A DNA stretch of 64,000 nucleotides, taken from NCBI GenBank assembly GCA_964400675.1, contig CAYNVO010000008.1, positions 51,119 to 115,118 of the forward strand. Direction: 5' to 3'. Of this stretch, positions 15,711 through 30,900 are shown piece by piece. Numbering within the stretch: position 1 is the first letter of the stretch; every line of letters starts with the position of its first letter. Both the position numbers and the translations under genes were made by a program. The notes beneath the pieces are model-generated. The model did no database searches and was not told the origin of the DNA. It saw only the letters and a program-made list of their open reading frames with translations. Origin of the DNA: an uncultured Dehalococcoidales bacterium. Its GTDB lineage: Bacteria; Chloroflexota; Dehalococcoidia; GIF9; UBA5629.

Positions 15711-15780
15711 ACGGCGATTGACCACCGATACTTTTTTTGCTAAACTATCGTTTTGGTTATTCAAATCCGCGGAGAACCAC

Positions 15781-16230
15781 GTGCCTGATAAACTAGCTAA
15801 GATAATGGCTGAATATGAGGGAGAAAAGGGCGCATTAATTCCAATCCTACAGAAGATTCAGGAAAAACTCGGTTACCTCACCGAAGAGGCAATTTCAGAG
15901 ATAGCTAAATTCTCCCGAATGTCGGAAAGCGAAGTCTTCGGAGTTGCTTCTTTTTATGCCCAATTTTACTTCACTCGACGCGGTCAGCACTCCGTTAAGG
16001 TCTGCTTGGGCACCGCCTGTCATGTGCGTGGAGGCGAGAAAATTCTGGACGAAATTAAAAGAGAGTTGGGTGTCGAGTCTGGAGGCACTACAGGAGACTA
16101 CAAATTCAGCCTGGAGAGAGTAGCCTGTTTCGGTTCCTGCGCTCTAGCTCCTGTGCTGGTCATAGACAAAGATGTTTATGGACGGATGACAGTTGCTAAG
16201 TCAAAAGAGACTGTAAACAAATACCGATGA
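15781..16230 (+). CDS. NuoE/HydC-like [2Fe-2S] subunit (module 1)
   Basis: CLGTACHV...CFGSC; GTG start at 15781 after GGAG. Confidence 0.92.
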   Translation: MPDKLAKIMAEYEGEKGALIPILQKIQEKLGYLTEEAISEIAKFSRMSESEVFGVASFYAQFYFTRRGQHSVKVCLGTACHVRGGEKILDEIKRELGVESGGTTGDYKFSLERVACFGSCALAPVLVIDKDVYGRMTVAKSKETVNKYR

Positions 16231-16242
16231 AATCCTAGCGAC

Positions 16243-18153
16243 ATGACCTTCGAGAAAATTCAAAAAAGGGCTGCTTCTGAGTGGGCAGCGCTACAATCAA
16301 GCAACAAACCACGGCTCTTAGTGGGTGCCGGCACCTGTGGTAGTGCCGCCGGAGCTCTTGATGTTCTCAAGGCTATTAATGAGGAACTGGCACGACACAG
16401 TATCGAGGCCATTGTTATCCAGGTAGGCTGCATGGGGCTATGTTTTATTGAGCCTATGGTTGGCATAATAAAGCCAGGACGCCCGCAAATCATCTACGGC
16501 AATTTAACCCCTGAGACTGCTAATCAGATTGTCAATGACTATCTGGTTTCCGATAACCCCAGGGCTGACTTAGCTCTAGGATACGTTGGTGATGGCAAGG
16601 TTGACGGCATTCCCAATTTATATGAGATGCCCGTGCTCAAACCACAGGTACGCATAGTCTTGCGTAACTGCGGTTTCATTGACCCCGAAAACATAAATCA
16701 CTACATCGCAAACGGTGGCTACAGCGGGCTGGCCAAGGCATTAAAGATGTCCCCTGAAGAAATAATTGAGGAGATTAAGAAATCAGGCTTGCGCGGTAGA
16801 GGCGGCGCCGGTTTCTCAACAGGACAAAAATGGGATTTCTGCCGAAAAGCACCCGGGAATGAAAAATATATAATTTGCAATGCCGATGAAGGTGACCCCG
16901 GCGCCTTTATGAACCGCTCGTTATTAGAAGGCGACCCCCATTCAGTCCTTGAAGGAATGGTTATCGGGGCTTACACTATAGGGGCCAGCCATGGCTATAT
17001 TTACTGCCGTGCCGAATACCCGTTAGCTCTGGAAAGGCTACGGCTGGCTCTGCAGCAGATGGAAGAATACGGCTTTATCGGAGATAACATACTTGGCTCC
17101 GGCTTCGATCTCCACATAAAAATTAAAGAGGGCGCTGGGGCTTTTGTCTGCGGTGAAGAAACAGCTTTGATGGCCTCCATAGAAGGCAAGCGGGGAATGC
17201 CCCGGTCACGTCCCCCTTTTCCAGCGATATCAGGATTATGGGGAAAGCCGACAAATATCAATAATGTAGAAACATGGGTAGACGCGGCACGCATATTAGA
17301 GAAAGGCAGTGACTGGTATGCCCAGTATGGCTCGGAAAAAAGCAAAGGAACGAAGACCTTTGCACTTGTAGGCAAGGTAGAGCGCACCGGTCTTATCGAA
17401 GTACCCCTGGGCATTACCTTGCGCCAGATAATCTACGAGATTGGCGGCGGCATACTCAAAGACAAGGAATTTAAAGCCGTGCAGACCGGTGGCCCTTCAG
17501 GTGGTTGCCTGCCACCCTCAATGCTCGATTCACCTGTTGACTATGAATCACTTGCTGCTGCCGGCTCAATCATGGGCTCCGGCGGTATGATTGTCGCCGA
17601 CGAAAACACCTGTATGGTTGACCTGACAAAGTACTTTCTCGGTTTCACACAGGCTGAATCCTGCGGCAAATGTCCACCCTGCCGGGTTGGTACACGCCAG
17701 ATGCTGGGCATCCTGGACCGCATTACTCGAGGCGAAGGCAAACCCGAAGACATAGCGCAGCTTGAAAGAATAGCCAACACGGTGAAGCAAGGCTCACTCT
17801 GCGGCTTGGGACAAACCGCCCCCAACCCGGTACTGACCACTATCCGCTACTTCCGGGATGAATACGAGACACATATCAACGAAAAGCGCTGCCCTGCCCT
17901 GGTATGTAAGAATTTGATTTCGTTCTATATTTTGCCGGACAAATGCCAGGGCTGCGGTATCTGCCTCAGAGCCTGTCCTGTGGAGGCAATCATTGGCGAT
18001 AAAAGAATGATTCACATTATCGATCAGGATAAATGTATCAAATGCGGGACATGCACCGATGTCTGCCCACCACGCTTTGCCGCCATAACCAAGGTGTCGG
18101 GTGAGCAAATCGAGGTCCCAAAACAACCAGTCCCTATTGAAGCATCAGCTTAA
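16243..18153 (+). CDS. NuoF/HydB-like FMN/NADH subunit with N-terminal thioredoxin-like [2Fe-2S] domain and C-terminal 2x[4Fe-4S] (module 1)
   Basis: GLRGRGGAGF, NADEGDPGAFM, GAFVCGEETAL, GGPSGG, ESCGKCPPCRVG, two CxxCxxCxxxCP motifs. Confidence 0.95.
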   Translation: MTFEKIQKRAASEWAALQSSNKPRLLVGAGTCGSAAGALDVLKAINEELARHSIEAIVIQVGCMGLCFIEPMVGIIKPGRPQIIYGNLTPETANQIVNDYLVSDNPRADLALGYVGDGKVDGIPNLYEMPVLKPQVRIVLRNCGFIDPENINHYIANGGYSGLAKALKMSPEEIIEEIKKSGLRGRGGAGFSTGQKWDFCRKAPGNEKYIICNADEGDPGAFMNRSLLEGDPHSVLEGMVIGAYTIGASHGYIYCRAEYPLALERLRLALQQMEEYGFIGDNILGSGFDLHIKIKEGAGAFVCGEETALMASIEGKRGMPRSRPPFPAISGLWGKPTNINNVETWVDAARILEKGSDWYAQYGSEKSKGTKTFALVGKVERTGLIEVPLGITLRQIIYEIGGGILKDKEFKAVQTGGPSGGCLPPSMLDSPVDYESLAAAGSIMGSGGMIVADENTCMVDLTKYFLGFTQAESCGKCPPCRVGTRQMLGILDRITRGEGKPEDIAQLERIANTVKQGSLCGLGQTAPNPVLTTIRYFRDEYETHINEKRCPALVCKNLISFYILPDKCQGCGICLRACPVEAIIGDKRMIHIIDQDKCIKCGTCTDVCPPRFAAITKVSGEQIEVPKQPVPIEASA

Positions 18154-18164
18154 CAGGAGCTAAC

Positions 18165-20855
18165 ATGGTTATCAGCGAAGAAACCAGAATAATGAACCTG
18201 ACTATAGACGGGCAACAGGTCGAAGTAAAAGAAGGCACTACAGTACTTGAGGCGGCTCGACAAGCAGGCATCTATATTCCAACGTTGTGTTATCACCCCA
18301 GCCTGACTCCATACGGAGCCTGCCGACTGTGCATCGTGGAAATTGAAAAATTACGAGGCTTCCCCACTGCCTGTACTACACCGGTAACTGAAAGCATGGT
18401 GGTAAGAACCAATACCCCACAGATCCAGGAGCTGAGACGAAATATCTTTGAACTTATTCTGGCGGAACACTCCAGGCAATGCATCACCTGCCCCAAAAAT
18501 CTACGCTGCGAGATGCAAGAAGTTGCCTCCCGCATCGGGGTGGAGGAGATTACACTCCCCCCTATACACAAAGAACTACCGATTTACCAGGACAGTCCCT
18601 TTTTCGACCGCGATTACAACCTTTGTATACTCTGCGGCAGATGCGTTCGGGTATGCCAGGAGGTAAGAGGAGTTGGAGCAATTGCCTTTACCTATCGAGG
18701 CAGCCAGGCATTAGTCGGCACTGCTTTTGACAAGACTTTGGAAGAGTCAGGATGTCAATTCTGCGGGGCTTGTGTTGACATCTGCCCTACCGGCGCTCTA
18801 ATGGATCGCCACAGCAAGTGGTTGGGGGTACCTGAACGCTCGGTAATTACAACCTGCCCTTACTGTGGAGTTGGTTGCCAGCTAAGACTCGAGGTAATCA
18901 AGGGCAAAGTCGTCCGCACAGTACCTGTTCTGGAAAATTCAGTAAACCAGGGACAGGCCTGCGTCAAAGGCCGTTTTGGCATTGCTGAGTTTGTACATCA
19001 TCCTGAACGCCTGACCACACCTCTGATACGAAAGAGCGGTGAACTCGTCGAGGCAAGCTGGGACGAGGCACTAAACTTAATAGCTGGCAAGCTGGACAGA
19101 TACAAAGGAAACCAGTTCGCCTTCATCGCCTCAGCCAAGTGCACCAACGAAGAAAATTATCTGGCACAGAAGTTCACACGCGCTGTGATGCAGACCAATA
19201 ATATTGACCACTGCGCCCGTCTCTGACATTCCCCCACGGTGGCCGGTCTGGCCGCCAGTTTCGGCAGCGGTGCTATGACTAACTCTATCAACGAGATCAA
19301 AGACGCTGGCTGTATCCTGGTCATCGGCAGCAACACCAGCACAGGTCATCCGGTTATTGCCTTAGAGATAAAGAAGGCAGTGCGCAATGGTGGCAGGCTC
19401 ATAGTTGCCAATCCTCGAGAGATTGAGCTTTCCCGCTACGCTGATGTATGGCTTAGACACCTTCCGGGCAGCGACGTTGCCTTGCTCATGGGCATGATGA
19501 AGGTTATCGTGGACGAGGAACTGGCTGAGCTAAGCTTTATAAGCGAATGTTGCGACAATTTCGACGCCTTCAAGGAATCTTTGAAGAATTTTGACCTCGA
19601 CTTCGTAGAGAAGGTTACCGGTGTGCCCGGTAACACCATAATCGAGGCAGCTCGATTATATGCCACATGTAAACCTGCAACCATCCTCTATGCCATGGGC
19701 ATTACCCAGCACAGCCATGGCACAGATAACGTAATGGCTACCGCTAACTTGGCTATGCTCACCGGTAATGCAGGGATACCGTCAACCGGTGTAAATCCAC
19801 TGAGAGGGCAAAACAACGTCCAAGGTGCCTGCGATATGGGTGCCTTGCCCAACGTTTACACTGGATATCAAAGGGTTGACAATCCCGACCTTCAAAAGAA
19901 ATTTGAAATCGCCTGGAGAGGCGACCTGATTTCAGCTCCGGGATTAACCTTGACAGAGATGCTCGATGCCGCTTGCGATGGAAAAATTAAAGCAATGTAC
20001 ATAATGGGCGAAAATCCAATACTGAGCGATGCCGATGCCAACCACACCGAGAAGGCATTGAAAAATCTCGAGTTCCTTGTAGTCCAGGACTTCTTCCTTA
20101 CTGAGACTGCACAACTGGCTGATGTAGTTCTGCCGGCAGTGAGCTTTGCTGAAAGAGACGGCACATTTACCAACACAGAACGGCGAATACAGCGAGTAAG
20201 GAGGGCAATCGAACCTTTAGGCAACTCCAAGCCTGACTGGTGGATTATATGCCAGCTAGCCAGGAAAATGGGCGCACAGAGTTTCGATTTCGAGAACCCC
20301 TCTGACGTTATGGGTGAAATTGCCAGATTGACCCCCAGCTACGGAGGCGTCAACTACGAACGCCTAGAGGAATGCGGGCTGCAATGGCCATGTCCAACAA
20401 AAGACCATCCAGGGACACCTATATTGCATGTGGGCAGATTCGCCTGCGGGCTGGGAAAATTCACACCGCTGCAATATAAGCCACCTGCTGAACTGCCCGA
20501 CAAGGAATACCCGCTTATACTTACCACCGGGCGTAGCCTGTATCATTTTCATACCGGCACCATGACACGGAAGGTCAGCGGACTCAATGTTCTTGAACCG
20601 GAGGGGGTAGTAGAGATAAATCCGTCGAATGCTTCTTCCCTGAAAATCAAGGATGGTAATACAGTAAAGGTGATTTCACGCCGTGGTGAAGTAACAGCCA
20701 GGGCTAAAGTGACTGAAAAATCACCAAAAAACGTTGTTTTCATGACCTTCCATTTCGCCGAGAGCGCAGCTAATCTACTCACCAACCCAGCATTAGACCC
20801 GGTAGCCAAAATTCCAGAGTTTAAAGTTTGTGCCGTGCGAATTGAGAAGGTTTAG
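18165..20855 (+). CDS. fdhA: Selenocysteine-containing Mo/W-bisPGD formate dehydrogenase alpha subunit with NuoG/HydA-like N-terminal Fe-S domains (896 aa, Sec354)
   Basis: ORFs 18165-19226 and 19239-20855 are in the same frame and separated only by TGA in DHCARL-U-HSPTVAGL, the active-site motif of Sec-FDHs. A SECIS-like hairpin follows. Confidence 0.95.
19238..19256 (+). promoter_or_regulatory. Bacterial SECIS element
   Basis: ggtggcc-ggtct-ggccgcc stem-loop starting 11 nt after the UGA at 19224-19226; the apical CCGGUCUGG resembles E. coli fdhF CAGGUCUG. Confidence 0.85.
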
Positions 20856-20958
20856 TAATGCAGCCGGAATCATTAAAACCACAGACAGGTAATGAATTGC
20901 AAAACCGAAAAAATGCGGCTTGTATGCTAAAAAGTCCAAACATGGTAATGGGGGCTAC

Positions 20959-20987
20959 TTGACCATTAAGACATCTCATGCTAAACT
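20959..20987 (+). promoter_or_regulatory. Putative sigma70 promoter of module 2/nfnAB operon
   Basis: TTGACC-17 nt-TAAACT with TGn extension. Confidence 0.55.
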
Positions 20988-21134
20988 ACGTGATTTGTTA
21001 GTGGTATTTCTAAATAGCAAGTTATCTGATAGGAAGAACACGGCAAACCATCCTGTAATTGTACTGACTATGCCCTCTAACATGGGAGTTTAGCGTAGCT
21101 CTATACGCAATCGACCGAAAGGAAGTTAACAAAA

Positions 21135-21614
21135 CTGGCTAAGACAGCGAGAGCGTCGACAGACCTGATAGAGCAAATCCGCACAGTCCTTGCTCCGTTC
21201 CGAGGTCGACAGGGTGTTCTTATTCCAGCACTACAGGCTGTACAAGGCAAATTCGGCTTTTTGCCTGAAGATGCCATGGAAGAAATCGGGCAGGTAGCCG
21301 GTATGTCCTCAAACGCAGTCTACGGCGTAGCCAGCTTCTATTCTCAGTTCCGCTTCGTCAAGCCCGGAGAGCATATGATTAAGGTTTGCCTTGGAACTGC
21401 CTGCCACGTACGTGGTGCTATGGGCATAGTTGATGCATTAAAACGAGAGGCAGATATGGAGCCCGGAAAAACTACTTCTGACGGCAAGTTCACCATGGAA
21501 GAGGTCCGATGTTTTGGTGCCTGTGCTCTTGCCCCTGTTATGGTAGTCGACGATGAAGTTTTTGGCACTGTAACAGCAGCAAAAACCAGGGAAATACTGG
21601 ATAAATTCCAATAG
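21135..21614 (+). CDS. NuoE/HydC-like [2Fe-2S] subunit (module 2), probable CTG start
   Basis: CLGTACHV...CFGAC. Homology (GVLIPALQAVQGKFGFLP) continues upstream of the ORF-track TTG at 21261; the only start-like codon with an RBS (AAGGAAG) is CTG 21135. Confidence 0.85.
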   Translation: MAKTARASTDLIEQIRTVLAPFRGRQGVLIPALQAVQGKFGFLPEDAMEEIGQVAGMSSNAVYGVASFYSQFRFVKPGEHMIKVCLGTACHVRGAMGIVDALKREADMEPGKTTSDGKFTMEEVRCFGACALAPVMVVDDEVFGTVTAAKTREILDKFQ

Positions 21615-21634
21615 CTTGACCAAAAGGGACTCAC

Positions 21635-23542
21635 ATGGATTTCACTAAAATCGTCGATAAAGCAAATGCAGAATGGCAGGCTTTGTGGCATGGTGATAAG
21701 CCTCTAATACTGGTAGGATTGGCTACCTGCGGCATGGCGGCAGGAGCTAACGCAGTAATGAAAGCTATCGAGAATGAGCTAAGCCAGCGAAATATAGAAG
21801 CTACTATTATTCCCGTGGGCTGTATAGGGCTCTGTTACCTGGAACCTTTAGTCGACATTGTTAAACCAGGACACCCTCGAATTTGTTACACCCATGTCAC
21901 ACCCCAAAAAGTAGGGGAACTCATCGAAGATTATCTCGTCAATGATAACCCTCGCCCTGACATGGCACTTGGCACCATTGGCGATGGCACCATAGCAGAC
22001 ATACCAAAATTTTATGAGCTTCCTATGCTAAAGCCACAGGTCAGGATAGCGACCCGAAATTGTGGGAATATCAATCCTGAGAACATAATGCATTACATAG
22101 CTCAAGGAGGCTACAGCGGCCTGGATAAAGCGCTGAAAATGCAGCCTGAAGAAGTGACTAAAGAAGTCAGTGAATCTGGATTGCGTGGACGTGGCGGCGC
22201 TGGCTTCCCCACAGCTAGAAAATGGGAGGAGGCACGCAACAGCAAGGCTACACCCAAATTTGTGGTATGCAATGGCGATGAAGGAGACCCCGGTGCTTTT
22301 ATGGACCGGTCTGTCTTTGAAGGCGACCCTCACGCTGTACTTGAGGGTATGGCTATTGCCGGTTATGCTGTTGGTACGCCAAATGGCTACATGTATGTTC
22401 GCGCTGAATATCCTCTAGCGGTGAGTCGCCTCAATATCGCCATAAGCCAGGCAAAAAAGCTGGGTTTGCTTGGCGACAACATTCTGGGCAGCGAATTCAG
22501 CTTCAATATCGAAATAATGCAGGGCGCTGGCGCTTTTGTGTGCGGTGAAGGTAGCGCCTTGATGTACTCCATAGAAGGTAGACGTGGAATGCCCAGGGTA
22601 AGACCACCACGCTCAGTAGCATCAGGATTATGGGGCTTACCCACTTCTTTGAACAATGTGGAGACCTTTGCTAATGTGCCTTCTATAATTTCCCGCGGGG
22701 GAAAATGGTATGCCAGCTATGGCACAGAGACGAGCAAGGGGACAAAAACATTCGCCCTGACAGGCAAAATAGAACGACCGGGGCTGATTGAAGTACCCAT
22801 GGGAATAACGCTGCGTCAGATAATCTATGATATCGGCGGTGGCATCCCCGGCAACAAGCCTTTCAAAGCTGTACAGACAGGAGGACCTTCCGGAGGATGT
22901 TTGCCACAAAACCTTCTGGATACACCCGTAGACTTCGAGACACTTGCCAAGGCTGGCTCTATTATGGGCTCCGGTGGCATGGTGGTGGTAGACGAAGATA
23001 CCTGCATGGTAGATGTCGCTCGATATTTTATCGCCTTCTGCCGCGATGAGTCCTGCGGCAAATGTATACCCTGCCGGGAAGGACTGCCCCTCATGAGCGA
23101 TATCCTCGAGAGGATAACGGAAGGCAACGGAAATGCTGAAGACATAGAACGGTTGATTGATCTGGGCGAGACGATTAAGAATGGCGCCCTGTGCGGCCTG
23201 GGAACATCATCTCCCAACCCGGTCCTAACCAGCATCCGTTATTTCCGGGACGAATGGGAAGCTCATGTTATCGAGAAAAAGTGCCCGGCGCTGGTGTGCA
23301 AAGCTCTCATAAACTTTTATATATTGCCTGATAAATGCTCCGGTTGCGGAATATGCCTCCGGGCGTGCCCTGTGGAGGCAATCAGCGGCGGCAAGAGAAT
23401 GGTTCACGTCATCGACCAGGAAAAATGTATCAAATGCGGGACTTGCCTGGAGAAATGTCCCGAGCGCTTCAGCGCCATAATCAAGACGACAGGAGAGCAA
23501 ATCGCCGTGCCTAAAGAGCCGGTACCGATAACTACCGCTTAA
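21635..23542 (+). CDS. NuoF/HydB-like FMN/NADH subunit (module 2)
   Basis: Paralog of 16243-18153: GLRGRGGAGF, GDEGDPGAFMDR, GAFVCGEG, GGPSGG, C-terminal 2x[4Fe-4S]. Confidence 0.95.
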   Translation: MDFTKIVDKANAEWQALWHGDKPLILVGLATCGMAAGANAVMKAIENELSQRNIEATIIPVGCIGLCYLEPLVDIVKPGHPRICYTHVTPQKVGELIEDYLVNDNPRPDMALGTIGDGTIADIPKFYELPMLKPQVRIATRNCGNINPENIMHYIAQGGYSGLDKALKMQPEEVTKEVSESGLRGRGGAGFPTARKWEEARNSKATPKFVVCNGDEGDPGAFMDRSVFEGDPHAVLEGMAIAGYAVGTPNGYMYVRAEYPLAVSRLNIAISQAKKLGLLGDNILGSEFSFNIEIMQGAGAFVCGEGSALMYSIEGRRGMPRVRPPRSVASGLWGLPTSLNNVETFANVPSIISRGGKWYASYGTETSKGTKTFALTGKIERPGLIEVPMGITLRQIIYDIGGGIPGNKPFKAVQTGGPSGGCLPQNLLDTPVDFETLAKAGSIMGSGGMVVVDEDTCMVDVARYFIAFCRDESCGKCIPCREGLPLMSDILERITEGNGNAEDIERLIDLGETIKNGALCGLGTSSPNPVLTSIRYFRDEWEAHVIEKKCPALVCKALINFYILPDKCSGCGICLRACPVEAISGGKRMVHVIDQEKCIKCGTCLEKCPERFSAIIKTTGEQIAVPKEPVPITTA

Positions 23543-23557
23543 AAAGAGCGAAAAAAT

Positions 23558-25327
23558 ATGGATGCTATCACTTTAACCATAGATGGGATCGAGGTCAGTA
23601 CCACCAGGGGCAAGAGAATCCTGGAGGCAGCACTGGATGCTGGTATTTACATACCTAATTTGTGCGCCATTCGGGATATCAAGCTGCCCTTCGGCGCCTG
23701 CCGTCTGTGCCAAGTACAAATAGAAGGCAGACGAGGCACTATCACCGCCTGCAGTGAACCTGCAGCCGATGGTATGGTCATTCATAGTAACACGCCTGAA
23801 GTAAACAGTCTGCGCCGGAAAATTCTGGAAATAATGCTGGCCAGGCATCCACATGACTGCCTCACCTGTTGGCGAAGGGAACGCTGCCAGCCATTCGACA
23901 TATGCTTGCGCAATGTGGCGGTAACCGAGCGTTGCGTTACCTGCCCTAAAAATGGACGTTGCGAGCTGCAGCAAGCAGTAGATTTCATCGGCCTTGATGG
24001 AATGCCCTTCCCCTACACCAGTAAAGGACTGCCTGTTGAAAAAGAAAACCCATTCATTGTCCGCAACAACAACCTGTGTATTCTCTGCGGTCGCTGCGTC
24101 AGGGTCGACCAGGAGATACTGGGCTTCGAAGCTATCGCCTTCAACCTGCGCGGGGCTCAGACCTATATCGGCGGCGCATTCGGTAAACCTCTTATCGAAT
24201 CAGGATGCACCTTCTGTGGCTCATGCGTGGAAGTCTGCCCCACAGGAGCGCTGATGGACAGAGAAAACGAGTGGAGCCACTGGCTTGACCGTGAAGCCGC
24301 TTCCATTCGCTGCAAATATACCTGCCCCGCAATGGTAGACGTGCCACGCTTCATACGCTTCATCCGAGAAGGAAAATATGACGAAGCCGTAGCCGTTATC
24401 CGTGAAAAAGTTCCTTTTGCGTCTATCTGCAGCCTTATTTGCGAGCACCCCTGCGAAAGCGCCTGCCGCCGCGGCAATCTCGACCAGCCCGTTGCCATAA
24501 GAGCCTTGGAGCGCTTCGCTGTCGAACGCTCCAACAAGGCTGAACCTGTGAAAGGCTCAAAAGCTGCAGCATCAGGCAAAAAATTAGCCATCGTCGGCTC
24601 AGGCCTCACAGGGCTTACCGCAGCTTATTACCTGGCCAAAAATTGTGGCCACGCTGTGACCGTGTTCGAGAGTTCAGGTCAGCCTGGCGGCATGATGCGA
24701 ACAGTTATACCTGAATACATCTTGCCTCACCGCATTCTGGACGCCGAAATAGAATCCCTGACCAAATTAGGGATTAAAATAAAACCTAACTCCAGGATAG
24801 AATCGGTGGATACTTTACTCAAAGAAGGCTACGACGCCGTGCTTCTGGCTATAGGATACACGGCAGAAATGCCCGAACAGCTTGGCGTTAAGATCAACGA
24901 GGAAAATACCATTCAGATTAACGCTAAAAGCCTTATGACCAACAAAAAGGGCGTCTTTGCCGGCGGCGATGCCGTGGATAAAAAACGTTCCTTCATTGAA
25001 GCTGTGGCTGCTGGCAGAAAAGCAGCCAGCTCCATTGACCGATACCTGGGCGGGAGCGGCGATATCAGCGAAGCCCTGGCACCTGTCATAGAGGGCGTAC
25101 CCAGGGTAGGCAGAATCGAGAATTTCGCCCAGAGACAGCGGCAGGAGATGCCTGTAACAAAACCAGCCAAACAGATTGGCAACTTCACTCAAGTTGAGCT
25201 TGGTTTCAACGATGAGCTGGGAAATGAAGAGGCAAAGAGATGCATGGGCTGCGACTTGAGGTTTGCCGTAGCCCGCATTGTAGCCGCCACAACAGGCAAA
25301 GTCTCCAGAACGCCTGTGCGGACCTAG
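23558..25327 (+). CDS. NuoG/HydA-like Fe-S N-terminus fused to a GltD-like FAD domain that lacks the NADP-binding domain
   Basis: [2Fe-2S] and H/C3 clusters, 2x[4Fe-4S], then CKYTCP..ICSLICEHPCESAC, IVGSGLTG, GVFAGGD, EAKRCMGCD; no second GGGNxAxD Rossmann motif. Confidence 0.85.
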   Translation: MDAITLTIDGIEVSTTRGKRILEAALDAGIYIPNLCAIRDIKLPFGACRLCQVQIEGRRGTITACSEPAADGMVIHSNTPEVNSLRRKILEIMLARHPHDCLTCWRRERCQPFDICLRNVAVTERCVTCPKNGRCELQQAVDFIGLDGMPFPYTSKGLPVEKENPFIVRNNNLCILCGRCVRVDQEILGFEAIAFNLRGAQTYIGGAFGKPLIESGCTFCGSCVEVCPTGALMDRENEWSHWLDREAASIRCKYTCPAMVDVPRFIRFIREGKYDEAVAVIREKVPFASICSLICEHPCESACRRGNLDQPVAIRALERFAVERSNKAEPVKGSKAAASGKKLAIVGSGLTGLTAAYYLAKNCGHAVTVFESSGQPGGMMRTVIPEYILPHRILDAEIESLTKLGIKIKPNSRIESVDTLLKEGYDAVLLAIGYTAEMPEQLGVKINEENTIQINAKSLMTNKKGVFAGGDAVDKKRSFIEAVAAGRKAASSIDRYLGGSGDISEALAPVIEGVPRVGRIENFAQRQRQEMPVTKPAKQIGNFTQVELGFNDELGNEEAKRCMGCDLRFAVARIVAATTGKVSRTPVRT

Positions 25328-25351
25328 ATAACAGACAAATCAGCATAACTC

Positions 25352-26203
25352 TTGGAACAGGTCATGTACAAGATTGTGGCCAAAGAGAAGCTCTGCCCTG
25401 TAGTTGACCTCATAATAATTGAGGCACCGGAAGTCGCCAAAAAGGCTAAAGCAGGTCAGTTTGTAGTTGTCCGCGTCGATGAAGTCGGCGAACGCATACC
25501 TCTTACATTAGCTGATTGGAACGCCAGGGAAGGCACTGTCACCCTCGTAGCCATGCAGGTAGGAACCACCACCTACAAGCTAGCCGCACTTAACACCGGC
25601 GACCACGTATTGGACTTGATTGGCCCTCTGGGATTACCTTCGGAAATAGAGAATTTCGGCACCGTGGTTTGCGTCGGCGGCGGCGTTGGCGTAGCCCCGA
25701 TATATCCAGTAGCCAGAGCGCTGAAGCAAGCCGGAAATAAGGTCATCACCATAATGGGTGCCCGGAGCAAAGACCTACTCTTCTGGGAAGACCACCTGAA
25801 AAGCGTCAGCGATGAATTGATAGTTACCACCGATGATGGCTCATACGCCCGTAAGGGGGTAGTAACAGAGCCATTGAAAGAAACACTCGAGAAAAACAGG
25901 CAAATCGGCCGCGTCATTGCCATCGGACCGGCTATAATGATGAAATTCTGCTCCTCGACCACAAAGCCTTTTGGAGTTCATACCATCGTCAGCCTGAATT
26001 CCATCATGGTAGATGGCACCGGCATGTGCGGCTGCTGCCGCGTTTCAGTAGGCGACAAAACCAGGTTCGTCTGCGTTGACGGCCCGGAATTCGATGGGCA
26101 CCAGGTCGATTGGGACCTTGTGTTCAACAGACAGCGCATTTATTGCGATGAAGAAAAACAATCGCTGGAACGGTGGAAAGCTCATAAGTGTCAGCATTCT
26201 TAG
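25352..26203 (+). CDS. nfnA: NfnA/SudB-like FAD/NAD-binding [2Fe-2S] subunit
   Basis: AGQFVVVR, ERIPLT, GPLG, GGGVGVAP, MVDGTGMCGCCRV, CVDGPEFD. Confidence 0.9.
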   Translation: MEQVMYKIVAKEKLCPVVDLIIIEAPEVAKKAKAGQFVVVRVDEVGERIPLTLADWNAREGTVTLVAMQVGTTTYKLAALNTGDHVLDLIGPLGLPSEIENFGTVVCVGGGVGVAPIYPVARALKQAGNKVITIMGARSKDLLFWEDHLKSVSDELIVTTDDGSYARKGVVTEPLKETLEKNRQIGRVIAIGPAIMMKFCSSTTKPFGVHTIVSLNSIMVDGTGMCGCCRVSVGDKTRFVCVDGPEFDGHQVDWDLVFNRQRIYCDEEKQSLERWKAHKCQHS

Positions 26204-26218
26204 AATCTGAGAGTAACG

Positions 26219-27640
26219 GTGGAAGAAAAAGCCAAGCCAAAGCTCGATTTAAATAGATTGGATATGCCCCGCCAGACTCCGAAGGCCAGGGCGAAAAACT
26301 TCAATGAGGTAGCCCTGGGCTATACTCGCGATATGGCACTTCAGGAAGCTAACCGCTGCATTCAGTGTCCCAAACGTCCCTGCGTAGCCGGCTGCCCGGT
26401 GAATGTCGACATCCCTGAATTCATAAAGGCATTGCGAGACAAAGATATGCCTGAAGCAGTGCGTATACTCAAAGGCAAAAACGCTTTGCCAGGCATATGC
26501 GGACGGGTCTGCCCGCAGGAAACACAGTGCGAGGAGGTATGCACACTATCCAAGAAAAGTGCGCCAATTGCAATCGGCAGACTGGAAAGATATGTGGCTG
26601 ACTGGGAACGGGAACATAGCACAGAGCTGCCTCCATCTCCCAATCAACAACCACCTACAGGCAAGAAAGTGGCAGTAATCGGCTCAGGCCCTGCAGGATT
26701 GACCTGCGCCGCTGACCTGGCTAAATTCGGACATAAAGTGACTATATTCGAGGCACTGCATACCGCCGGCGGAGTACTGATGTACGGCATACCTGAGTTC
26801 AGGATGCCTAAAGCCATTGTCCAGGGTGAGGTGGATTATGTCAGGTCATTGGGGGTAGAAATCAGGCTTGACTCGGTGATGGGCAAACTGGCTACTGTGG
26901 ATGAGCTGCTGGAGGGCAAATACGATGCCGTATTCCTGGGCACCGGTGCCGGGTTACCTATGTTCATGAACATACCCGGTGAGAACCTGAACGGTGTTTA
27001 TTCAGCCAACGAGTTCCTTACCCGGGTGAACCTGATGAAAGCTTACCTCTTCCCCGAGTACGATACCCCGATAAAGGTCGGGAAAAAGGTAGCCGTCATC
27101 GGAGGGGGCAATGTGGCTATGGACGCAGCCCGCTGCGCTCTAAGACTTGGCGCTGATGAAGTTTATATCATATACAGACGCTCTCGAGTTGAAATGCCGG
27201 CTCGACATGAGGAAGTGGAAAATGCCGAAGAAGAGGGAATTATCTTTAAGCTGCTTACCAATCCTAAACGCTTTATAGGCAACGACCAGGGCTGGATAAC
27301 CGCCGTCGAATGCTATGAAATGGAACTGGGCGAGCCGGACGCCAGCGGCAGACGCCGCCCCATAATCAAGGAGAGCAGCGAGTTCACCATCGACGTCGAT
27401 GTCGCCATCGTGGCACTGGGAACTACTCCCAACCCACTGATTTCATCAACCACAAAAGGGCTGGAAACGAAGCAAAACGGCACTGTGATAGCCGATGAAG
27501 AAAGCGGCAAGACGGTAAAGGACAAAGTCTGGGCGGGTGGTGATATAGTCACCGGCGCCGCCACCGTCATCAGCGCTATGGGCGCCGGCAAGCGCGCCGC
27601 CGCCTCAATAGATACCTATTTAAAAAGCACCAAACCATAA
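26219..27640 (+). CDS. nfnB: NfnB/SudA-like (GltD-like) FAD/NADP Fe-S subunit
   Basis: RCIQCPKRPCVAGCP, CGRVCPQETQCE, IGSGPAG, GGGNVAMD, YRRS, AGGDIVTGAATV; directly follows nfnA. Confidence 0.9.
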   Translation: MEEKAKPKLDLNRLDMPRQTPKARAKNFNEVALGYTRDMALQEANRCIQCPKRPCVAGCPVNVDIPEFIKALRDKDMPEAVRILKGKNALPGICGRVCPQETQCEEVCTLSKKSAPIAIGRLERYVADWEREHSTELPPSPNQQPPTGKKVAVIGSGPAGLTCAADLAKFGHKVTIFEALHTAGGVLMYGIPEFRMPKAIVQGEVDYVRSLGVEIRLDSVMGKLATVDELLEGKYDAVFLGTGAGLPMFMNIPGENLNGVYSANEFLTRVNLMKAYLFPEYDTPIKVGKKVAVIGGGNVAMDAARCALRLGADEVYIIYRRSRVEMPARHEEVENAEEEGIIFKLLTNPKRFIGNDQGWITAVECYEMELGEPDASGRRRPIIKESSEFTIDVDVAIVALGTTPNPLISSTTKGLETKQNGTVIADEESGKTVKDKVWAGGDIVTGAATVISAMGAGKRAAASIDTYLKSTKP

Positions 27641-27835
27641 ACACCCAATTCCAAATATTTCGGTTTGGAATTTGTCTAGGTTTTTCCCTGCGAAGATTTA
27701 GCCGTTGACCGTGCCCCTTTAGGATCGCTAGGGCAAGACCAAAGCCTCGCCGCTACATGTTACACACCCACAACGGGTGCTCCATCACAATTAGCCCTAC
27801 CACAGAAGGGCGACGTGACAACCTCACATTTTCTT

Positions 27836-27950
27836 TGTCATCCTGAAGGAGCAGAGCAACTGAAGGATCTTACCCAAACTGAATTCCATGACCGCCCTAT
27901 GAGATTCTTCGCTTCGCTCAGAATGACAAAGGCGAAGGACTCGCAACGAC
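27836..27950. repeat. Composite palindromic (REP-like) repeat, copy B
   Basis: tgtcatcctgaagg...gaaggatct and gagattcttcgcttcgctcagaatgaca are inverted halves; tail gaaggactcgcaa is identical to 34795-34807. Confidence 0.75.
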
Positions 27951-27956
27951 AGATTT

Positions 27957-30900
27957 CTAGGATTTCGAATTTTGGATTTTGGATTTGGCGGTGCCTTTCC
28001 GTCGAGACCTGGTCAACAGGCGATTTATCTCAGCACCCAATTTCTTAACATCAAACGGCTTGGTAATACATGGGACTCCTGTCCTGGCAAGAATGGCTTC
28101 GGTATCCACCCCCATCACGTCACCTGTTATGAACACCACCCGTTTCGCCATGGATGGCTCTATCTCCTTAATACGCTCATACAACTCGCTGCCGCTAATT
28201 TCGGGCAATTTCATGTCCAGCAGTATAAGGTTATAATTATTGCTCTTAATCCGTTTCAAGGTGTCCTTGCCACTGTCCGTGGTCTCCACCTCATGCCCCA
28301 CCTCAGTAAGAACCTGGCTTAACAACTGCCTCACCACCGGCTCATCATCCACCACCAGTATTTTGCCTTTAGCTGTTTTCTCCGCTTTGCGCGCCGGCTT
28401 AGCCTGTCTGGGACGTTTCTCTTCAGTGACTACGGGCAACTCCACGATAAAAGTAGCCCCCTTGCCCATCTGGCTTTCAGCCCATATCCTGCCACCATGC
28501 TCGTTTACTATCCCATGGCAGATGCTCAAACCAAGCCCGGTCCCCTCACCCACCCCCTTGGTAGTAAAGAAGGGGTCGAATATCCTCTCCAGGTTTTCCT
28601 CAGCTATGCCCGGGCCATCGTCTTTAAAAGATACCCGGATGGTATTATCAATGCGCTCTGTCTTAATTATGAGTTTTCCTTTCCTATGTGCTGACCTCAT
28701 CTCCATCTCGGCGTTTATAATCAAATTAAGGAACACCTGCTGAAGCTGACCGGCATCGGCGACAGTCACAGGTATGTCAGGAGCCAGCCTGGCCGTGACC
28801 TTTATATTGCCGGTCTCCAGCTCATAAGCACGCAGACGTAAGACAATCTCGATAATCTGGTTAACATCCACAACCGTACGCTCCGGCCTAGTCTGGCGGG
28901 CAAAAGTGAGCAGCCCTCTTACGACATCAGCCACCCGTTTGCCTCCCTCATAGATAATCTTCAAATCATTCTTTATATGTTCGGGCACATCCTCATACAT
29001 CAACAACTCGGCATAACCGATAACACCGGTAAGGGGGTTATTTATCTCATGGGCGATGCCGGCAGCTAATTCGCCTACGGAAGCCAGACGGCTGGCAAGC
29101 TGTGCCTTTTGCTCCATCCCCCTCCTCTCTTCTTCAGCCTTCTTCCGTTCGGCGATATCCCGCATAACGCCCAGGATACCGATGGGCCGACCATCCGGCT
29201 CACGTATAAAGCTCATCTTCAGTTCAGCCCATAAGAGGGAACCATCACGGCGAATAAATTTTATTTCCAATGTCCTCGACCTGCCCGGGTCCGGTGGCGC
29301 AACATTTGCCCGAGCCATTTCCTCAGCAAAAACATCCAGGGCTAGTTTCTGCGAAGATGGCGTAAGCAGTTGCTCAAATGACATGGACATAATCTCTTCA
29401 GCGGTGCGGTCTACGAGATATTTAGCAGACGGGCTTATATAGGTAAACCGCAAGTTCATATCAGTGGAGAAGATAACGTCTCTTACGTTCTCAGCCAGCA
29501 GTCGATATCGCGCCTCGCTCGCCCGCAGCGACTCCTCAGCTCGCTTGCGCTCTGTGATATCCCGAACGAATACAAACAATCGTTCGCCATCAACTTGCAA
29601 ATAGTTGACACTAATCTCAACGTCAACTATTTCGCCATCCTTGCGGCGATGGCAGCTCTCAAAACGGTCGGAGCCAGTCTCCCTTATCTTCTGGATGCGT
29701 TTGGCTGTTTCCTCTGGTTTCTCTATTGCTTCGATATCTGTGATTACCATATTCAGAAGCTCATCGTGGCTGTAGCCTATCAAACTGCAGTAGGCCTCGT
29801 TCACATCTAAAAAGCGCCCCTGCATATCCGTCTGCCAAAAACCATCTACTGTGGTACGGATGATAGCCCGGTACTCCTGTTCCCTGGCTTTTCGCTCGGT
29901 GATGTCACGGATAAATACAAACTCACGCCCATCATCAGTTGGCAGATAGTTAATACTGACCTCAACGTCAATAATGCTGCCATCTTTGCGCCGGTGACGT
30001 GTTTCAAAGCGGTTCTGGCGTATTTCTTTGATTTCTCGGAAGCGTTCCGTTATCTCCTCCGGCGTCATCATGGCTTCGATGTCCACAATTGACATATTTA
30101 GAAGTTCGTCACGGCTATACCCTATTAAATTGCAGTAGGAGTCGTTTACATCTAATAAGTGCTCCTGCATATCTGCCACCATGTAACCATCTATAGCGGT
30201 GCGGATAATAGTCTGGTACTTCTCCTCAGCCTGCTTGCTCTCGGTGATATCCCGATATACTACCTGGAATCTTTGCTCACCATCCCACAACACCTCTCCA
30301 CGTGACACAGCCAGATTTCGAACCTGACCGCCCTGGCGCACAATGCTGACCTCATAATTGGGTGAGACAAACTCTCCCCGTTTTCTCTTCTCTACTCGTT
30401 CCCTGTGCTCAGCGTAGCTCTCGGGCGTATAAAGTTGCTTTCTAGACACAGCTTCCAGAGCCTTGAGGCTTCCGTAGCCGCATATACTCAGTAAAGCCCG
30501 GTTGACGTAAAGCGTCTTTCCATCCTCGCTGGCAATTCGTATTCCCAGAGGCGAGTTTTCTATTGAGTCACGGAAGTTCTGCTCCGAGAGGCGAAGGGAT
30601 TCTTCAGCTTCCTTACGATCGGTTATGTCACGAACCACGGCTTGAATTGCCGGCTTGCCCTGGTAAACTAAAGGGGCTGCCCTTGCCTCAACATCAATCA
30701 CCGTGCCATCAAGCCTCAGAAACTTTTCTTCCACAGCGAGGGCTATGGTTCCTGTTTCCATCGACTTTTTCATTCTCTGGGCGACAATTTCACGATAGTC
30801 CGGGTGGATGAAGTCCATTACAGGTTTTCCTATGACCTGGTCAGGACTCGAGGCACCATACAACTTCAGTCCGGCACTATTTACGAAGACATGCCTGCCT

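Follow-up and report, generated by a model that had tools for sequence, protein, structure and literature searches.

What is left of an electron-bifurcating enzyme when the domain that binds NADPH at its third site has been removed? Bfu/HydABC-type enzymes form a large, recently recognised bifurcating class, in which communication between the third site and flavin mononucleotide (FMN) is debated. The question is raised by a stretch of 64,000 nucleotides (nt) of contig CAYNVO010000008.1 from an uncultured Dehalococcoidales bacterium, referred to here as the window. The gene at 23558..25327 of the window encodes a BfuA/StnC-like protein of 589 amino acids (aa), designated P0001, which was the query throughout and consists of a NuoG-like Fe-S N-terminus and a GltD-like module without the NADP(H) domain. 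All features of the window described below lie on the plus strand. We found that the loss of the NADPH site is real and selected, a descriptive conclusion that we hold with high confidence. The best explanation as a whole, in which this selected loss would have left the GltD end as an electron-relay end for a partner, with NfnAB as the candidate, has in our judgement about an even chance of being right.

P0001 lacks the NADP(H) domain and keeps its Fe-S ligands

An earlier note, made from the DNA sequence alone, had claimed that the NADP-binding domain was lost in frame at a junction near 24856 while the Fe-S Cys residues and the motifs for flavin adenine dinucleotide (FAD) were kept. This was confirmed by BLASTP against the neighbouring NfnB and by a MAFFT alignment of 111 family members. 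In the BLASTP comparison, residues 252-433 of P0001 matched NfnB 55-243 and residues 426-497 matched NfnB 394-468. NfnB residues ~244-393, which include VIGGGNVAMD and IIYRRSRVEMPA, had no counterpart, and the whole NADP(H) Rossmann domain was thus absent in frame. In the MAFFT alignment, the sole internal gap of P0001 followed residue 434 (…YDAVLLAIGY|TAEMPEQ…), where the insert measured 115-148 residues in full-length relatives and 158 in NfnB. The size of 155-160 aa claimed for the deletion therefore holds against NfnB, but not against the closest full-length relatives, for which it is 138 aa. The junction G433|Y434 (24856..24857) is the insertion point of the NADP(H) Rossmann domain in all canonical relatives, and the sequence that spans it is …LLAIGYTAEMPEQ…. 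A separate NADPH domain encoded elsewhere in the 64-kb window was not found by tblastn, which matched NfnB alone and excluded the possibility that the domain had split off there as its own gene. Five or more further GltD fusions in the window's genome retain an intact insert of NADPH-domain size, and P0001 is the sole NuoG-GltD fusion there.

The NuoG-like part (23564..24253; Pfam Fer2_4, NADH-G_4Fe-4S_3 and Fer4_Nqo3) comprises a [2Fe-2S] domain at residues 3-79, a His-ligated [4Fe-4S] site from residue 86 and two [4Fe-4S] sites at residues 165-232, and its Cys and His ligands were invariant in 89 sequences. The GltD/DPD-type Fe-S domain follows at residues 251-327 (24308..24538; Pfam Fer4_20, profile positions 31-110) with C252, C256, C291, C295, C299 and C303. 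The first two Cys of this permuted domain, C562 and C565, lie in the C-terminal RCMGC (25238..25252), and none of the eight Cys that serve the two [4Fe-4S] sites is missing. In NfnB, the counterpart of RCMGC is the N-terminal RCIQC (residues 46-50), and RCxxC was present in 111 of 111 family members. The FAD-binding Rossmann half, the single Rossmann domain that Pfam detects after the Fe-S domain, has an N-terminal part (residues 340-433; 24575..24856) with GSGLTG at residues 347-352, VTVFES, QPGGMM and I388, and a C-terminal part (residues 434-500; 24857..25057) with GVFAGGD and the SFIEAVAAGRKAA helix. By Fer4_20, its eight Cys and its FAD motifs (GxGxxG, FE, GG and GGD), the GltD module holds two [4Fe-4S] clusters and an FAD site whose occupancy is predicted. 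The AlphaFold2 (AF2) model of P0001 had a predicted local distance difference test score (pLDDT) of 84 and a predicted template modelling score of 0.85; pLDDT was 83-96 in the N-terminal FAD half and ~71 at the junction (residues 431-440).

The short form is conserved and under purifying selection

A collection of 5.8 billion proteins contained 57 clusters of 550-600 aa, 56-87% identical, with the same gap and an open frame, together with 54 full-length relatives. The family alignment of 111 sequences comprised 57 short, 32 degenerate-long and 22 canonical forms. All named sources of the clusters were metagenome-assembled genomes (MAGs) of Chloroflexi/Dehalococcoidia. A search of representatives at 50% identity placed the whole short clade under the long P0015 and was unusable for counting short forms. 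Complete short frames occurred in 4 of 401 sampled species of the class, namely the window's genome, one congener and two species of another family. Between short genes, the whole-gene ratio of nonsynonymous to synonymous substitution rates (dN/dS) was 0.06-0.13 by the Nei-Gojobori method, with dS partly saturated (0.5-0.9 in the best pairs), indicating purifying selection. The earlier note had proposed a new subtype of NuoE/NuoF plus NuoG-GltD (Stn/Nfn-Bfu-like) modules and had suggested a search for homologs with the same deletion and a dN/dS analysis. Both bear the proposal out: the deletion is shared by 57 clusters and is not unique to this assembly, and the subtype is conserved, has at least two origins and is under purifying selection.

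The NADPH site decayed before it was excised

The 22 canonical full-length forms carry VIGGGNVAID … YRRTRAEMPA. The 32 degenerate-long forms keep the Rossmann domain and have lost the 2'-phosphate motif and EMPA (e.g. VIGSGYAAAQ … IICDKKELAI). The NADPH domain is among the best conserved regions of the canonical forms (mean identity 0.71 vs 0.68 overall) and the least conserved region of the degenerate-long forms (0.42 vs 0.59 overall). All short forms nest within the degenerate clade (99% support in the SH-like approximate likelihood ratio test, SH-aLRT), in three groups that each stand beside their own long relatives. In the approximately unbiased (AU) test, one clade for all short forms was rejected (p = 2e-46), and with it a single origin; short clades 1 and 2 as one were also rejected (p = 9e-5), and clades 1 and 3 as one were tolerated (p = 0.10). 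The breakpoints also differ: clade 1 passes from …LAIG to YTAEMP, and in clade 2 seven residues of the lost domain stay and the following strand is also removed. The nesting, the AU test and the breakpoints show that the NADPH site had decayed prior to its excision and that the domain was deleted at least two times independently within one subfamily of Dehalococcoidia.

Deletion variants occurred sporadically elsewhere (P0231/P0275, P0272, P0243 and P0136). P0231, a stand-alone NADPH-less protein, and P0275 are the only short members among ~120 relatives of ~545 aa. P0272 (659 aa) joins the C-terminal part of NuoF directly to an NADPH-less GltD module, and P0243 (1133 aa) has two GltD modules, the first short and degenerate and the second complete. 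P0158 (579 aa) has a NuoG N-terminus and a GltD Fe-S domain; its first Rossmann motif is of the NADPH type, GGGNVAFD, and what it seems to lack is the N-terminal βαβ unit of the FAD domain and not the NADPH domain.

A shift of constraint away from the flavin half and towards the Fe-S half

The Arg at position 239 of StnC (R201 of NfnB) lies beside the flavin, and the R239A mutation nearly abolishes NADPH-dependent activity (PMC10482914). When P0001 was aligned with NfnB and StnC, as the earlier note had suggested, the NADP(H) domain was absent and the R239 position was occupied by Ile388. Across the family, Arg stands at this position in 22/22 canonical, 16/32 degenerate and 0/57 short forms, the last having I, V, D or E. 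A ligand of the flavin-proximal cluster has changed as well: it is Lys in 22/22 canonical forms, as K170 in StnC, and Glu in 57/57 short forms, as in NfnB (E318 in P0001).

We also compared dN/dS along the gene. In short genes it was 0.02-0.05 in the NuoG part, 0.11-0.26 in the N-terminal FAD half and 0.20-0.28 in the C-terminal FAD half, which is the least conserved region of the short forms (mean identity 0.57). Canonical genes showed the opposite, with 0.11-0.16 in the NuoG part, 0.03-0.05 and 0.11-0.25 in the N- and C-terminal FAD parts, and 0.04-0.065 in the NADPH domain. G377, G378, E371 and the residues I480, A484, G486, R487, A489, A490 and D494 of the flavin-capping helix were invariant or nearly so in 89 sequences. 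The exchange of dN/dS values and these invariant residues show that constraint in the short forms has moved to the Fe-S half, and that the flavin half is relaxed yet still selected.

Relation to Stn, Nfn-Bfu and Nfn enzymes

The best phmmer matches of P0001 were 9bov_A (7e-89), 8oh5_C (2e-82) and 9n5u_A (1e-68), and Foldseek ranked the same three first; the global template modelling score was low (0.45), since the domain order differs from that of StnC. These structures belong to StnABC of Sporomusa ovata (8OH5/8OH9), Nfn-Bfu/NfnABC of Caldicellulosiruptor saccharolyticus (9BOV) and the Thermococcus sibiricus enzyme (9N5U), which have the same three-gene logic of a NuoE-like, a HydB-type NuoF-like and a NuoG-like plus GltD subunit. 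NuoE2 and NuoF2, encoded upstream of P0001, correspond to StnA/StnB or BfuC/BfuB, and P0001 is the "A" subunit. The traits of the Bfu/HydABC family are present: a NuoE-like [2Fe-2S] protein and a HydB-type NuoF-like protein are encoded with an A subunit that has a NuoG/HydA-like N-terminus. StnC and NfnA of C. saccharolyticus share the circular permutation of P0001 (start C..CP, end RCxxC) and its Fe-S ligands. Unlike StnC/Nfn-Bfu, P0001 lacks the NADP(H) Rossmann domain (GGGNVAxD … YRR[TS]R.EMPA), the R239 Arg and the FdhF-like C-terminal domain; its cluster ligand is Glu and not Lys as in StnC. The GltD module stands at the C-terminus of P0001; StnC has it after the [2Fe-2S] domain and ahead of the remaining parts. 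The electron path in StnC starts at the NADPH-FAD site, continues over the pair of GltD clusters and then the NuoG clusters, and ends at the FMN of StnB (PMC10482914). The P0001 gene is also co-operonic with a complete nfnAB, whereas Stn contains no NfnA homologue (PMC10482914). No published description of an NADPH-less Stn/Nfn-Bfu subunit was found in the literature searched, the coverage of which was incomplete.

The canonical NuoG-Nterm·GltD fusions (690-760 aa) share the domain order and family of P0001, are 45-70% identical to it outside the gap and fall in one tree with it. They keep VIGGGNVAID…YRRTRAEMPA and the Arg and, unlike the short forms, are most constrained in their flavin and NADPH halves. 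Canonical NuoE-NuoF-fusion trios were found in Elusimicrobia, Planctomycetia, Thermoplasmatales, Desulfobacterales and some Dehalococcoidia. FdhB of Moorella thermoacetica has this architecture; members of the family are named formate dehydrogenase (NADP+) beta subunit by the Joint Genome Institute (JGI). The GltD-like module is homologous to NfnB of NfnAB/NfnSL (Thermotoga maritima, 4YLF; Pyrococcus furiosus, 5JCA), with 38% identity over 190 residues and a shared Glu ligand. NfnB has an NADPH domain and the Arg that contacts N5 of the bifurcating flavin, and it pairs with NfnA, whereas P0001 has neither the domain nor the Arg and is fused to a NuoG-like wire.

A relative of another kind is the curated, uncharacterised NCBIfam family NF045663, "diclust_near_Sec" (pyridine nucleotide-disulfide oxidoreductase/dicluster-binding), the first 310 positions of which are a GltD-like Fe-S and FAD module with no NADPH domain. 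Residues 251-566 of P0001 matched its positions 19-310 in one stretch, whereas the genome's other GltD modules were all split at about position 201. P0001 is not a member (201 bits against a cut-off of 530). A true member (L120, 1031 bits) aligned contiguously across the P0001 junction with 32% identity (E = 3e-40) and, like the short forms, lacks the Arg and the Asp of GGD. After this module, the NF045663 proteins carry a Fer4_17 dicluster and CCG (HdrD-like) domains, and they lack a NuoG-like N-terminus; P0001 has neither Fer4_17 nor CCG. Because the alignment is contiguous, the NADPH-less architecture has a precedent, and a module of this kind can function as a stable component. Recombination with an NF045663-type gene was rejected as the source of the short module, since the short forms, over their full length, fall within the long family.

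Organisation of the locus

Three units lie on the plus strand from 15.7 to 27.6 kb: NuoE1-NuoF1-FdhA, NuoE2-NuoF2-P0001 and NfnA-NfnB. Module 1, the formate dehydrogenase (FDH) module, begins with the NuoE-like NuoE1 (15718..16230; Pfam 2Fe-2S_thioredx, E 8.7e-49) and the NuoF/HydB-type NuoF1 (16243..18153; Complex1_51K, NADH_4Fe-4S, a weak N-terminal 2Fe-2S_thioredx and two C-terminal Fer4). FdhA (18165..20855; Pfam matches on both halves) joins a NuoG-like N-terminus to a molybdopterin formate dehydrogenase with a selenocysteine (Sec354). The in-frame TGA at 19224-19226 (…HCARLUHSPT… in the read-through translation) separates the open reading frames (ORFs) 18165-19226 and 19239-20855, which together give one selenoprotein of 896 aa. 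FdhA is separated from NuoE2 by a gap of ~280-400 nt.

The module-2 cassette consists of NuoE2 (21135..21614; Pfam 2Fe-2S_thioredx), NuoF2 (21635..23542) and P0001. Read from 21261, the earliest ATG, GTG or TTG, NuoE2 covers only profile positions 29-144 of 2Fe-2S_thioredx. The conserved N-terminal helices (…LIPALQAVQ…) are encoded upstream, where the frame is open from 21099, and AAGGAAG stands 9 nt before a CTG at 21135. This non-canonical CTG is the probable start of NuoE2. NuoF2 is of the HydB/StnB type, with FMN and NADH loops, an N-terminal thioredoxin-like domain and a C-terminal pair of [4Fe-4S] sites (Pfam); its FMN/NADH loops are glycine-rich (GRGGAGFPT, CNGDEGDPGAF and GAGAFVCGEGSAL). 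NfnA (NfnS; 25352..26203) is canonical (NCBIfam NF004862, 426 bits against a cut-off of 220; Pfam DHODB_Fe-S_bind and NAD_binding_1), as is NfnB (NfnL; 26219..27640; TIGR01316, 605 bits against a cut-off of 472), in which the GGGNVAMD / YRRS NADPH site is intact. Spacers from NuoF2 to NfnB are 15-24 nt, that between NuoF2 and P0001 being 15 nt. In a scan of 20700-28100, where the totals of promoter- and terminator-like sites were at shuffle level (7 vs 7.4; 8 vs 7.8), a promoter-like site was found at 20959-20987, between fdhA and NuoE2, and no plus-strand terminator-like site was seen inside the NuoF2-NfnB operon.

nfnAB recurs beside degenerate and short forms

We examined the neighbourhoods of the related genes. 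nfnAB was adjacent at 8 of 9 short loci and at 8 of 9 degenerate-long loci of Dehalococcoidia (the latter being L004/5/81, L006, L007/8, L015 and L043, with L018 as the exception). The adjacency extended to loci without FDH (L007, L015, L002 and L014) and to a divergent nfnBA order (L002 and L014). Outside Chloroflexota, none of 36 canonical NuoE-NuoF-fusion loci had nfnAB within 10 kb. The degenerate/short subfamily is unique in joining its own NuoEF pair, a GltD fusion and nfnAB. That one of the two NADPH sites in this five-gene NuoEF-fusion-nfnAB unit decayed fits a situation in which NADP(H) coupling would be left to NfnAB.

A smaller unit was also observed in the family of the window. At L090, L106, L108, L109, L110 and L112, a canonical NuoG-Nterm·GltD fusion of 727-736 aa is followed by NfnA and NfnB with spacers of ~10-15 nt and with no NuoEF or FDH nearby; this unit may be an extended three-subunit Nfn.

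The cassette arrived in the place of a canonical paralogue

A congener, G316, is syntenic with the window from the pantothenate operon to trpB2 (locus L089), with proteins 84-92% identical. Its gene order is NuoE-NuoF-FdhA, a canonical gene of 729 aa, NfnA and NfnB, without NuoE2/NuoF2. The canonical gene (L089:8529-10718) overlaps fdhA by 4 nt, and its product is 47% identical to P0001. A canonical 729-aa gene follows fdhA in both G316 and G253, with an overlap or a gap of 4 nt. In the slot between fdhA and nfnA, the NuoE2-NuoF2-short cassette is found instead in the window's genome and in G078, a further congener. Synteny thus indicates that the cassette came in here and replaced a canonical NADPH-binding paralogue. 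P0001 and its short counterpart in G078 share 77% identity. For the window's NuoF2, identity is only 63% to NuoF2 of G078 (L091) but 78% to NuoF of a degenerate-long cassette in another family (G394, L094). From such comparisons, the cassette seems to recombine or move among Dehalococcoidia.

Possible roles of the flavin end

We propose that P0001 would no longer take hydride from NADPH. It would still assemble with NuoE2/NuoF2, its Fe-S chain being intact and ending in a flavin that is probably still bound. The GltD end would now serve for docking or for relaying electrons, its exchange partner being a protein instead of a nicotinamide, and NADP(H) coupling at the locus would be left to the co-operonic canonical NfnAB, the main recurring neighbour of the degenerate and short forms. 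We consider this relay to NfnAB tentatively, as somewhat short of an even chance. A more far-reaching version, in which NuoE2/NuoF2/P0001 and NfnAB form one five-subunit assembly or the Bfu enzyme has a wholly new third substrate, is unlikely. In the five-subunit case, the truncated GltD end would dock NfnAB, e.g. as a pseudo-dimer with its homologue NfnB, and a Bfu-type FMN site and an Nfn-type FAD site would be wired in series with one shared NADPH site.

Several observations weigh against the relay to NfnAB. Among the short forms, GGD is variable, with N or E in place of D and VS, CG or the like in place of GG, and a glycine of GxGxxG is lost in ~8 of 57, so that FAD may have been lost in part of the short clade. 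Beside the junction, on what would be the newly exposed face, conservation is lowest, unlike what is predicted for a specific docking surface. A short-form locus of clade 3 (L003) has the three genes and no nfnAB within 9 kb. The canonical fusion-NfnA-NfnB trio is universal across the window's family, and the linkage predates the deletion. In Dehalococcoidia, nfnAB also stands beside FDH/Bfu loci without a GltD fusion (L029, L031, L072 and L082), and its association with the short forms amounts to about one or a few evolutionary events and is statistically weak. Finally, identity to the proteins of the sister species with the canonical gene is 84% for NfnA and 87% for NfnB, within the 84-92% of other shared genes, and because this is the range of the flanking genes there is no sign of NfnAB co-adaptation.

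The earlier note had gone further on the flavin, with an exposed FAD passing electrons on, possibly to NfnAB or the adjacent FDH. The results qualify this reading: the flavin half is the least constrained part (dN/dS 0.11-0.28), and the weak constraint, the degenerate GGD and the replacement of the Arg in 57/57 short forms suggest that flavin chemistry was downgraded without obvious repurposing. As for NfnAB, the suggestion gains from its constancy as a neighbour, which holds even without FDH and in two gene orders. The linkage, however, preceded the deletion and is shared by canonical forms, and NfnAB shows no extra divergence. NfnAB is therefore a plausible partner of P0001.

The flavin end could instead be vestigial, the GltD remnant being kept for its two [4Fe-4S] clusters and for a fold that stabilises the subunit, with the third branch closed. 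NuoE2/NuoF2/P0001 would then be a plain non-bifurcating NADH:ferredoxin oxidoreductase or a redundant paralogue, and nfnAB would be merely co-regulated. This agrees with a dN/dS in the flavin half 4-6 times that of the NuoG part, the opposite of the canonical pattern, as well as with the degenerate GGD of many short forms, the loss of R239 in all of them, the decay that preceded the deletion, the isolated three-gene locus L003 and the unchanged NfnAB. However, a dN/dS of 0.11-0.28 is far from neutral, and G377, G378, E371 and the capping helix have stayed (nearly) invariant in the 89 sequences. Total loss of the flavin half would be expected somewhere among 57 clusters, as happened with the NADPH domain. 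In addition, Bfu-type enzymes are described as having three sites and, between them, a wide range of third substrates (PMC9304861). A two-site version would waste the potential difference between ferredoxin and NADH. We regard a vestige as somewhat unlikely.

That range of third substrates lends some weight to a further possibility, in which, with the NADPH domain gone, the flavin or its proximal cluster would react with an acceptor or donor other than a nicotinamide, such as a small redox protein, a quinone, a disulfide or polysulfide, or O2/H2O2. A variant that is conserved, recurrent and selected would fit a new substrate, and the switch of the cluster ligand from Lys (22/22) to Glu (57/57) looks directed and should retune the potential of the cluster. 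NF045663, moreover, joins an NADPH-less module to HdrD-like dicluster/CCG domains, which points to disulfide-type chemistry. Nevertheless, no candidate acceptor gene was specifically linked to the short forms, the contexts of which were otherwise unrelated; the junction region is poorly conserved, and where the catalytic Arg was lost no new conserved residue has appeared (I, V, D or E). A new third substrate is thus distinctly improbable.

FDH was the other partner named in the earlier note. In this case the cassette would have replaced an FdhB-like NADPH-binding subunit translationally coupled to fdhA in the sister species, and P0001 would dock FdhA, as is presumed for the canonical paralogue, and tie FDH to a second NuoEF pair. 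The 4-nt overlap or gap between fdhA and the canonical gene in G316 and G253 is in line with this, as are the JGI label of a formate dehydrogenase beta subunit and the cassette at exactly the post-fdhA position both here and in L001, L009, L010, L012, L013 and L017. Yet degenerate and short forms occur with nfnAB and with no FDH within 9-10 kb (L002, L007, L014 and L015), the ~280-400-nt gap with its promoter-like site lies between fdhA and NuoE2, and FdhA comes with a NuoG-like N-terminus and with NuoE1/NuoF1 as partners of its own (Pfam). Docking to FdhA is therefore very improbable.

An artefact or a dying gene, through misassembly or a recent deletion heading towards a pseudogene, is refuted for practical purposes and has a negligible chance: an orthologue lies in pieces at two MAG loci (L011 and L078) and in another GltD family just two isolated members, P0231 and P0275 of ~120 forms of ~545 aa, are NADPH-less, but 57 clusters down to 56% identity share the gap with an open frame, whole-gene dN/dS is 0.06-0.13, complete frames occur in 4 of 401 species from two families, and the Fe-S ligands are invariant. 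The orthologue at the two loci (L011:2030-3802 and L078:6672-8867) is split into two or three ORFs, which are either assembly frameshift errors or real pseudogenes.

Significance

The short form is a natural, selected version of Stn/Nfn-Bfu in which the third site has been removed and the electron wire kept, and as a defined construct it lets the roles of the wire and the flavin be probed in the absence of NADPH. Related genomes preserve stepwise intermediates, from the canonical to the decayed and then the deleted NADPH domain, the last step having been taken at least twice. The annotations "formate dehydrogenase (NADP+) beta subunit" and "NADPH-dependent glutamate synthase-like" are wrong for the short clade, and metabolic models of uncultured Dehalococcoidia should therefore not count the short form as an NADPH port. 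The short form also suggests that NfnAB and Bfu modules may be integrated in Dehalococcoidia, either physically or in function. If the flavin end has a new partner, it would represent a new reaction type for the family, and a five-subunit assembly, if real, would combine in one hybrid the two transhydrogenase designs known so far, which are unrelated. The decay of the NADPH site in full-length sisters, the arrival of a three-gene cassette and the precedent of NF045663 go beyond what the earlier note had proposed.

Other GltD-containing proteins

Further GltD modules were observed in the FDH loci and in the window's genome. Formate dehydrogenases with a complete N-terminal GltD module and a canonical NADPH site were found at L004:9830-13933, L081:9744-13847 and L018/L095 (801 aa). 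They consist of an N-terminal part of ~800-817 aa, an in-frame stop that presumably encodes Sec, and a further ~545 aa. NuoF-like proteins of ~1010-1032 aa that match the GltD module (G000:C5:60304-61740, C5:90188-91651, L012:1743-4832, L075, L082, L083 and L098) appear to be NuoF::GltD fusions and to be common in FDH loci of Dehalococcoidia. In the window's genome, two GltD-fusion ORFs of 723 aa with identical scores (G000:C3:65778-67238 and G000:C11:36812-38272) represent either a recent duplication or an assembly duplicate.

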